Assembly: GCF_024700885.2 (NCBI RefSeq)
Contig: NZ_CP117016.1
Length of the DNA: 64,000 bases
Strand: one strand, 5' to 3'
Origin: Escherichia coli
GTDB lineage: Bacteria > Pseudomonadota > Gammaproteobacteria > Enterobacterales > Enterobacteriaceae
A program made the position numbers. Position 1 is the stretch's first letter. The number at the start of each line of letters is the position of its first letter. Shown in pieces: positions 56,601-59,600 of this stretch.

Positions 56601-59600
56601 CTTCGTTGTTCATCAGAATGATTTTGACATCCAGCTGATTTTCACTGGCGGTCGCCATCTCCTGAATATTCATCATCAGGCTGCCGTCGCCGGAGAAACA
56701 CAACACTTTGCGATCCGGGTTCGCCAGCGCCGCGCCAATGGCCGCAGGCAGACCAAAGCCCATCGTGCCCAGCCCACCGGAGGTCAGCCACTGGCGTGGG
56801 CGATTGAGCGGATAAGCCTGCGCGGTCCACATCTGATGCTGACCCACGTCGGTGGTGATAATCGCATTGTCATCGACACAGGCGGCAACGGCGTTGATCA
56901 GGCCGTAATGGCTTAATGGATCGCACGCTTTCGGGATTGGACACGGGAATTCGCGCTGCAAATCCGCTACCAACTGGTGCCACTCTGCACGCGGTTGCGC
57001 TTCCACCTGCGGGATCAGCTGCGCCAGCACGTCATCAACATCCGCCTGAATCGCTACGTGCGGCTGCTTGATTTTACCCAGCTCTGCGCGATCGATATCG
57101 ACATGAATAATTTTCGCATTCGGACAGAACTGCTCGGTTTTGCCAATCGCCCGGTCATCAAAACGCGCGCCGAGAACAATCAGCAGATCCGCCTCCTGCA
57201 AGATATAGTTGGTGCTGCGCACACCGTGCATCCCCAGCATACCCAGCGACAACGGATGCGCTTTTGGCAACATGCCCAGCGCCATTAAAGTCATGGTGGT
57301 AGGCAGCTGCGCTTTCTCCGCCAGTTCACGCACTCGCGCAGGCGCATTGATCACACCGCCGCCCAGATAAAGCACCGGGCGTTTGGCAGCATTAATCATT
57401 GCCGCTGCGTCACGAATGCTTTCTTCGCTAAAAGCGGGTGCGGCGGCTTTTTCTGCCATAGCGGGCTGTGCTTCAATCTCAAAAACGGCCGTTTGCACAT
57501 CCTTAGGAATGTCTATCCACACCGGGCCAGGGCGGCCTGATTGCGCAATACGAAAGGCATCGCTCATGACCTGCGGGAGTTCTTCGATATGTCTGACCAG
57601 ATAGTTGTGTTTGGTGATGGGGATAGAGATGCCGTAGGTGTCCACTTCCTGGAAGGCGTCGGTGCCGATCATCGAGGCGGGAACCTGACCGGTGATGCAA
57701 ATCAACGGGATGGAGTCCAGCCGCGCATCGGCAATGGCGGTCACCAGGTTAGTCGCGCCCGGCCCGCTACAGGCCATACAGACCGCCGGTTTACCGTCGG
57801 TGCGCGCCATTCCCTGAGCGATAAACCCCGCGCCCTGTTCATGGCGAGCCAGAATATGGCGGATTTGCGTGCTTTGGCTTAAGGCATCGTAAACAGGCAG
57901 GATAGAACCGCCCGGAATGCCCGTCACAATCTTAATGCCCTGCTGTTCCAGGAAATGAACGATAAATTCTGCGCCGGTAAAGCGCTTACGCGTTGATGTT
58001 GTGCCCGAACTTGCCATGCTCCAGTCCTTTTCTTCTGGGCCGACTTTCCGGGAGGTGCTTAAACGAAAAACCCCGCCCGGTTTGCGCCGGCGGGGTTTTG
58101 GAATCGTGTGTTGTTCCAGTCCCTACGGCGCATTGCCGACGACCACCACCACACGCACGACGACCACTGCGGCGGATGGCGCAGTTGGTAGTAGTTTTGC
58201 GTTGAACATGGAAGTAGTCATTGGGGACCTTGTTGGTTTTGTGTTTAACAATATTTATACAAGCACAGCTTTACAGGGGAGACAATGGAAAATTTTTCAG
58301 CAAGGGAAAATTGAGGGGTTGATCACGTTTTGTACTGAATTGCAGGTAACAAAAAACCCCGCCGGAGCGAGGTTTCGTCAGTCGCCTGCGGCTGGTAACC
58401 GCAAAGCACACTGTATTATGTCAACACTGAAAGTATACGTGTTCCGCGCAGAACGCGCAATTTCGGCACGAATTTTGACGTATTTAGTGCATAGTTGAGT
58501 ATCGATCATAGTTTGCGTTTTGTCCAAATATTACTGTTTATTTATACAGTAAACTTCTATAATATCACTGTACGCAATGTGTTATGTGGGGGCCGCATCG
58601 TTACCCGGCGCACTAAGTCCTGGCTGAAACGGGTGGTGCCGTCAGCGCCTTAACCCCGCGTGAGCACACTGTGTTATGTCAACAAGCACAACGTTTCTCC
58701 TTGAGATACCGCGTGCACAACAGCTGGCAACAGGCAGCGGAAAGGTACGTCAGCTGGCAGTGCTCCTGAACCACAGGAGACGCGTATGAGCCTGGTGGAT
58801 ATCGCCATTCTTATCCTCAAACTCATTGTTGCAGCACTGCAACTGCTTGATGCTGTTCTGAAATACCTGAAGTAATTCAGATTCAAGTCGCACCAAAGGG
58901 GAGCGGGTAACCGCTCCCCTTTCATATTTAGCGTGCGGGTTGGTGTCGGATGCGATGCTGATGCATCTTATCCGCCCTACCATCCCTCCCGGCAACATTT
59001 ATTGCCGCTTTTGTTTACATATTCTGCCGCTAAACAATTCCCCATTCCTGGCGTATATCTGGCTAACATTTATCAATGTGATAGATTCCTCTCCCGCATT
59101 TATGGGAATGCGTAGTGACTTATTCTAATTATTTTTATAAAAGCATCCGTGATAATGAAAAGGCATAGAAACGTCAATTTGTTATTGATGTTGGTATTAC
59201 TCGTGGCCGTCGGTCAGATGGCGCAAACCATTTATATTCCAGCTATTGCCGATATGGCGCGCGATCTCAACGTCCGTGAAGGGGCGGTGCAGAGCGTAAT
59301 GGGCGCTTATCTGCTGACTTACGGTGTCTCGCAGCTGTTTTATGGCCCGATTTCCGACCGCGTGGGCCGCCGACCGGTGATCCTCATCGGAATGTCCATT
59401 TTTATGCTGGCAACGCTAGTCGCGGTCACGACCTCCAGTTTGACGGTATTGATTGCCGCCAGCGCGATGCAGGGCATGGGCACCGGCGTTGGCGGTGTAA
59501 TGGCGCGTACGTTGCCGCGTGATTTATATGAACGGACACAGTTGCGCCACGCTAACAGCTTGTTAAACATGGGGATTCTTGTCAGTCCGTTGCTCGCACC

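Follow-up and report, generated by a model that had tools for sequence, protein, structure and literature searches.

An apparently intact tisB/istR-1 type I toxin-antitoxin locus on an Escherichia coli chromosome and its conservation among Enterobacteriaceae

Introduction

The tisB/istR-1 system of Escherichia coli K-12 MG1655 (b4618/b4616) is the textbook precedent for the locus described here, which lies at positions 58343-58930 of a 64-kilobase (kb) stretch of E. coli DNA from contig NZ_CP117016.1 (assembly GCF_024700885.2). This whole stretch, 64,000 nucleotides (nt) long, is called the window below. In K-12, tisAB encodes a small toxin, and the divergently encoded istR gives two RNAs, IstR-1 and IstR-2. 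The copy in the window is complete, ordinary and already known as a system.

Several other type I systems resemble tisB/istR-1 in part. The E. coli pair dinQ/agrB shares a LexA-repressed toxin, a divergent and trans-acting antitoxin RNA, an inert primary mRNA that is activated by 5' processing, and a small inner-membrane peptide (PMC5668327), whereas its sequence family and chromosomal place are different. AgrB restructures its mRNA to sequester the Shine-Dalgarno sequence, while IstR-1 competes with standby ribosomes (PMC5668327). In zorO/orzO and shoB/ohsC, a divergent, non-overlapping antitoxin RNA also pairs within a long 5' untranslated region of the toxin mRNA, and zorO is further like tisB in its 5' processing, standby site and RNase III cleavage; however, these two systems are not under LexA control, and their peptides and RNAs are unrelated. 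The hok/sok system has an inert primary transcript and an antisense RNA, with a duplex that is cut by RNase III (PMC5668327). In contrast to IstR-1, Sok is cis-encoded and overlaps its target, and activation proceeds by 3' processing. In addition, hok is coupled to the translated leader open reading frame (ORF) mok, whereas tisA, which precedes tisB, is not conserved as an ORF.

Results

Identity and chromosomal setting of the locus

The chromosomal type I toxin-antitoxin module tisB/istR-1 of E. coli is almost certainly present in intact form at 58343-58930, and the sequence holds nothing that counts against this identity. The Rfam model of istR (RF01400) matched the minus strand at 58351-58480 over model positions 1-130 of 130, with 150.1 bits against a gathering score of 45 (E = 3.7e-31). 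The toxin, MSLVDIAILILKLIVAALQLLDAVLKYLK, scores above the cut-offs of the two NCBIfam equivalog models and of the Pfam model over its full length, residues 1-29 (NF011340, 69.9 bits against 53; TIGR04459, 61.5 against 38; PF13939, 37.6 against 25), and its RefSeq entry, WP_000060506.1, is annotated as TisB. An earlier note on this DNA had read a 29-codon ORF, which lies at 58786-58875, as TisB, and all family cut-offs agree with it; its span for the locus, 58300-58930, takes in the whole module with every element that it described.

The locus is placed between ivbL/ilvB and emrD, a position that it shares with K-12, and the order ilvB-ivbL-istR-tisB-ysdE-emrD is the same in the RefSeq annotation of identical genomes and in K-12. 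While istR is annotated only in K-12, tisB is annotated by RefSeq in genomes that are 100% identical here. The two transcription units, istR (58351-58490, minus strand) and tisAB (58570-58928, plus strand), are divergent, do not overlap and are 79 base pairs (bp) apart, with ivbL and emrD as flanking genes. The coordinates of the elements are collected in Table 1.

Table 1. Elements of the tisB/istR-1 locus in window coordinates
Element	Position	Strand	Details
IstR-1 antitoxin small RNA	58351-58425	-	75-nt form; the K-12 RefSeq feature transfers to 58351-58423
IstR-2, 140-nt long form	58351-58490	-	contains all of IstR-1; transferred from K-12 noncoding RNA b4616
istR-1 promoter	58432-58460	-	-35 TTGCGC (58460-58455), 17-bp spacer, -10 TATACT (58437-58432); custom scan
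istR-2 promoter	58498-58526	-	-35 TGGACA (58526-58521), 17-bp spacer, -10 GATACT (58503-58498)
LexA (SOS) box TACTGTTTATTTATACAGTA	58532-58551	.	-38 to -19 of tisAB; -42 to -61 of istR-2
tisAB promoter, -10 TATAAT	58558-58563	+	custom scan; no good -35
tisAB primary (+1) mRNA, 359 nt	58570-58928	+	start placed from the -10 position
5' leader, +1 to +41, removed by processing	58570-58610	+	predicted fold; published model
5' stem-loop of active +42 mRNA, +42 to +69	58611-58638	+	part of functional standby site (PMC6690012)
Ribosome standby site / IstR-1 target AGCACACUGUGUUAUGUCAAC	58663-58683	+	+94 to +114; direct repeat D2
tisA, 37-codon ORF	58676-58789	+	intact here; ATG inside the IstR-1 target
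Predicted hairpin sequestering the tisB Shine-Dalgarno (AGGAGA, 58775-58780)	58760-58783	+	-12.6 kcal/mol; predicted unpaired probability 0.17-0.20
tisB coding sequence, 29 amino acids, N2S allele	58786-58875	+	WP_000060506.1; NCBIfam, Pfam, RefSeq
tisAB intrinsic terminator	58895-58928	+	12-bp stem 58895-58922, U-rich tail

Among complete E. coli genomes, the region 58200-59000 is 100% identical to many, which come from isolates of varied sources, and some match to it is present in 5419 of 5426. The module itself, 58343-58930, is covered to at least 80% in 4150 of the 5426 genomes. It has no match in 1068 of them, about one fifth, though its flanks are nearly universal, and a few genomes, such as H47 and H48, hold split or partial copies. 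The locus is thus common but not universal in E. coli; that not every E. coli carries it has also been published (PMC11264685).

Comparison with K-12

The earlier note had proposed an alignment with K-12 istR/tisAB, naming divergence from istR as the result that would speak against its reading. The alignment gave 99% identity to MG1655: of 961 aligned bases 10 differ, all of them outside istR, which matches base for base. K-12 features were transferred by this alignment, the window coordinate being the coordinate in the K-12 locus (L002) plus 56732. The elements identical to K-12 are IstR-1, IstR-2, the LexA box, the three promoters (bar one spacer substitution), the standby site, tisA and the Shine-Dalgarno hairpin.

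The differences within the locus are single-nucleotide polymorphisms (SNPs) that disrupt none of the defined elements. One, T/C at 58509, lies in the spacer of the istR-2 promoter and is the sole difference in that stretch. In the mRNA, the SNP at 58587 (leader position +18) turns a G-C pair into G-U, and 58790 gives the only coding difference, TisB N2S. The remaining two are at the terminator, in the loop (58908) and in the tail, which reads UUUC for UUUU (58923). According to PMC11264685, 85% of E. coli carry N2S, its toxicity is no lower than that of the K-12 form, and it does not affect survival of ciprofloxacin; it is K-12, then, that has the unusual allele.

IstR RNAs

The earlier note expected IstR on the opposite strand upstream of tisB but left its ends undefined. 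The Rfam match lies there, and the ends can now be set from K-12, because the 140 nt that match K-12 IstR-2 are identical in the window and its features transfer directly. In the 75-nt form of IstR-1, the first 21 nt are those of the published 21-nt complementarity. The RNA is predicted to fold with -32.5 kcal/mol (z = -4.05), leaving the first 12 nt at the 5' end unpaired ahead of two stem-loops, the second of which is the terminator (58353-58376), followed by U6. The antitoxin is the short, constitutive IstR-1, which does not overlap tisB, and this refines the picture given in the earlier note.

LexA box and divergent promoters

The motif TACTGT-N8-ACAGTA occurs at a single site in the 64 kb, 58532-58551, and in none of 100 dinucleotide shuffles. 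The bare CTGT-N8-ACAG core appeared at least once in 40 of 100 shuffles, so it is not significant alone. In the box, both 6-nt arms are perfect, 18 of 20 positions match the idealised palindrome TACTG(TA)5CAGTA, and the sequence equals the K-12 box exactly. The site therefore stands as the perfect LexA operator upstream of a 29-codon ORF that had been claimed from the sequence; tisB starts 234 bp past its end. A CTGT-N8-ACAG operator, an AT-rich centre and an overlapping promoter are found together, which would place tisAB in the LexA regulon. The K-12 box has a heterology index of 1.81, a comparably low value that means tight repression (PMC5668327); this index is quoted as published. The K-12 tisAB promoter shows 1,000-fold induction by ciprofloxacin (PMC2826370).

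The box lies between two divergent promoters, those of tisAB and istR-2, and occupies the -35 position of tisAB. A prediction of minus-strand promoters in 58340-58530, another of the checks proposed earlier, returned two, istR-1 and istR-2. The istR-2 promoter is correctly placed for a start at 58490, and the istR-1 promoter, which sits within the region transcribed into IstR-2, for a start at 58425. The promoter hexamers of the window are those listed in Table 1 of PMC11264685, which covers more than 2,000 genomes of E. coli. The thresholds of a generic promoter and terminator scan were too strict for the istR-1 promoter, the tisAB promoter and the tisB terminator, which were recovered by a custom scan and folding.

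tisAB mRNA, standby site and terminator

The first 21 nt of IstR-1 (58425-58405, minus strand) form 20 Watson-Crick pairs and one G-U pair with 58663-58683 on the plus strand; the tisB ribosome-binding site lies about 100 nt further downstream. In the DNA, the plus-strand sequences of this target and of the istR-1 segment 58405-58426 repeat each other directly over 22 nt, with a single A/G mismatch. Published work places the start of the single-stranded standby region near +93 and the RNase III product at +106 (PMC6690012), in agreement with the target at +94 to +114, and the latter cut maps to about 58675, inside the target.

In the minimum free energy fold of the +1 mRNA, 58654-58674, which includes the first half of the IstR-1 target, is paired with the leader segment 58572-58591, and the standby site would thus be masked. 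The +18 SNP costs the leader helix 1.9 kcal/mol, and the predicted structure is unaltered. The predicted unpaired probability of the target is 0.36 in the +1 mRNA, 0.48 in the +42 form and 0 in the +106 form, where half of the target is lost.

Two further similarities were considered. About 65 nt of complementarity between IstR-1 and tisAB (-73.5 kcal/mol in duplex prediction) was examined as an old duplication and dropped; beyond the 22-nt core, the similarity at DNA level was no better than chance, 125 of 2000 shuffles reaching the observed score. A third, 13-nt standby-like copy at 58575-58587 is explained as leader pairing with the standby region.

The strong terminator that had been noted after the ORF is a perfect 12-bp inverted repeat with a 4-nt loop at 58895-58922 (-24.4 kcal/mol, z = -6.0), followed by UUUCAUAUUU. 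It was missed by the simple scan because the stem absorbs the first three T.

A repetitive extragenic palindromic (REP)-like element lies at 58930-58990, between this terminator and ysdE, and has been described for K-12 (PMC2577331). The gene ysdE (58999-59076, minus strand) starts with ATG in K-12 and with ATA here (59071, T for C), with an in-frame TTG one codon upstream; it had no NCBIfam hit and is still annotated by PGAP in identical genomes.

Conservation across genera

A degenerate 38-nt istR pattern, run on contigs of species representatives, found 14 loci in Escherichia, Citrobacter, Salmonella, Pseudenterobacter, Franconibacter, Siccibacter and two further Enterobacteriaceae. A TisB-like ORF of 29 residues lies on the opposite strand in all 12 loci with a long enough flank, and 13 of the 14 have a CTGT-N8-ACAG box. 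The counts that follow come from an alignment of 13 loci from at least six genera.

The CTGT/ACAG core of the LexA box is kept in 12 of these loci, with one mismatch in the thirteenth. The whole arrangement of istR-2 -35, 5 bp, 20-bp LexA box, 6 bp and tisAB -10 (58521-58563 in the window) is invariant in 13 of 13, and this spacing points to selection on a shared divergent control region and on IstR-2 expression. The istR-1 promoter has a 17-bp spacer in every locus, with a -10 of TATACT in ten and TATAGT in three, and its -35 varies in the last two bases only. The istR-2 promoter is likewise conserved across genera, its hexamers as well as those of istR-1. IstR-1 and its target keep 20-21 of 21 pairs in all 13, with a compensatory T-to-C change on both partners in six, although the search pattern fixed part of the istR side, which leaves only the target side free of ascertainment bias.

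When the predicted mRNA structure of the window was laid on the alignment, 89.4% of its pairs could form, compared with 37-46% in slid controls, and 15 pairs were changed on both sides against 5-7 in the controls; the structure comes from a member of the alignment itself, which inflates the paired percentage and, to a lesser degree, the compensatory counts. The clearest support falls on the helix at alignment columns 405-412/433-440 (about 58706-58741), the terminator and helix 13 in the coding region. The leader helix (helix 1) is 82.6% paired, and helices 3 and 4, which form the 5' stem-loop at 58611-58638, are 97-100% paired in a block that is almost invariant across genera. The Shine-Dalgarno hairpin (helix 9) is 84.7% paired and the terminator (helix 15) 97.4%, with two compensatory pairs in each. 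Box, promoters, spacing, pairing and mRNA structure are kept across the loci, while the tisA frame is not.

Discussion

Proposed mechanism

The presence, integrity, position and conservation of the cis elements, their complementarity and the predicted folds were read from the sequence here, and experiments in K-12 supply LexA repression, processing, standby loading, RNase III cleavage and toxicity (PMC4147584, PMC6690012, PMC5668327, PMC2826370, PMC11264685). By analogy, we infer that the same steps operate in this strain. When DNA is undamaged, LexA bound at 58532-58551 would cover the tisAB -35 region and spacer and keep transcription low. The primary 359-nt transcript would be translationally inert, its leader paired around the standby site and the tisB Shine-Dalgarno buried in its hairpin, and loss of the first 41 nt would give the active +42 mRNA. 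On this form, 30S subunits and protein S1 would load at the single-stranded standby site about 100 nt upstream, and transient opening of the hairpin would let a loaded 30S subunit slide along to the tisB start.

On the opposite strand, IstR-1 has a constitutive promoter of its own. The RNA would pair through its first 21 nt with the standby site, so that ribosome loading is blocked and RNase III cleavage leads to the inert +106 mRNA. Under strong SOS induction, tisAB mRNA would outrun IstR-1. TisB would then enter the inner membrane, dissipate the proton motive force and lower ATP, favouring growth arrest and persistence.

Weighing of the readings

Some points weigh against the reading of the locus as an intact copy that works as in K-12. 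The four mRNA SNPs (+18, N2S, terminator loop and terminator tail) could change levels quantitatively. The tisAB start at 58570 was taken from the -10 and from agreement with the published numbering and length, not read from data; the length that results, 58570-58928, equals the published 359 nt (PMC2577331). In addition, the gain in predicted accessibility of the target from +1 to +42 is modest, and the folds thus recover just part of the published switch. Taken further, the SNPs might make the toxin leakier or more potent than in K-12, by way of N2S, the G-U pair at +18 and the weaker U-tail of the terminator, which we consider improbable. The four changes are present and the leader helix is weaker with U at +18, but the predicted structure stays the same, N2S is the majority allele with the same ciprofloxacin survival (PMC11264685), and the exact sequence of the window is common to many varied isolates. 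Because it is so widely shared, any effect of the SNPs would be the normal state of the species, with K-12 as the outlier. That a palindrome, a short ORF and a hairpin came together by chance and without function is practically negligible. Although the operator core alone is frequent in shuffled sequence and 29-codon ORFs are common, this idea is refuted by the full LexA box that no shuffle produced, RNA and protein families matched far above threshold, and a cross-genus arrangement with covariation.

Two other readings concern the parts played by IstR-2 and tisA within the known locus. IstR-2 contains the entire IstR-1, hence the same antisense segment, and would be induced together with tisAB, which might make it the functional antitoxin of the SOS response in place of IstR-1; all 13 loci keep its promoter at 5 bp from the LexA box, which argues for selection. 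However, IstR-2 is reported to be LexA-controlled without repressing tisB translation (PMC2826370, PMC11264685), deletion of the istR-2 promoter lowered rather than raised persister levels (PMC2826370), and the predicted IstR-2 fold has the start of the antisense segment paired with the 5' end of the RNA. We therefore regard this role as very unlikely. Slightly less likely again is that tisA makes a functional 37-residue peptide to which tisB translation is coupled, as in mok/hok. In its favour, the window and more than 99% of E. coli have an intact ORF (PMC11264685), whose stop overlaps the tisB start in ATGA at 58786-58789. Across the genera, in contrast, 8 of 13 loci have ACG as the start, eight lack a 32-nt block within tisA, and the frame is not kept, its length varying from 6 to 46 codons; tisA also had no hit in NCBIfam or Pfam. 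Conservation within E. coli is explained by conservation of the RNA structure, helix 8 being 100% paired with four compensatory pairs. On these comparisons, tisA is not conserved as coding sequence, which fits the reports that it is untranslated (PMC2826370, PMC11264685). The reading of an intact tisB/istR-1 module, with IstR-1 as the antitoxin, is the one that we retain.

Other features of the window

Several observations concern the window outside the module. Between uhpA and ilvN, which we take to be adjacent in K-12, there is a 3.1-kb islet of low GC content (52800-55900; 33-37% GC against 55-60% in the flanks). Its two ORFs, 52806-54368 and 54478-55773, both on the minus strand, are annotated as hypothetical proteins; they had no meaningful match in Pfam, NCBIfam (one sub-threshold hit), PHROGs or PADLOC, and the 431-amino-acid ORF had none among PDB sequences. 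Of 5426 E. coli genomes, 1109 carry the islet, O157:H7 EDL933 among them; most copies are only 80-95% identical, so it is fast-evolving.

The gene selC for tRNA-Sec lies at 16879-16969 (Rfam, 83.8 bits) and is followed by a 129-bp rhuM pseudogene fragment at about 17053-17181, probably the scar of an earlier island integration. The island near selC (21457-41353) carries the HilA-like regulator eilA, SipB/SipD-like type III translocon and tip proteins, a SycD-family chaperone, and the inverse autotransporter adhesin iatC, with 4287 residues (28490-41353, minus strand); the distance from selC to tisB is longer than in K-12, and this island makes up most of the surplus. Between nepI and yicN, at 42973-43633 on the plus strand, a RelE-family toxin (PF06296, 131.8 bits) and a helix-turn-helix/MqsA-like antitoxin form a type II toxin-antitoxin pair.

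Significance

The tisB/istR-1 system is a textbook case of ribosome-standby control and of persister formation linked to the SOS response, and one more copy of it in E. coli brings no new knowledge. The practical gain is that each element now has exact coordinates in the window, with the dominant N2S allele and all regulatory parts intact. The cross-genus comparison is of modest added value, since covariation backs the published RNA mechanism and gives comparative evidence, in line with published reports, that tisA is not conserved as coding sequence. It also raises an idea that applies to the family, not to this window specifically. The rigid spacing at the LexA box and the kept istR-2 hexamers could mean that the SOS-induced IstR-2 has been selected for a separate function and is not a by-product of the shared operator, which we consider rather unlikely. 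If true, IstR-2 might have a second target, or might tune the output of tisB late in the SOS response.

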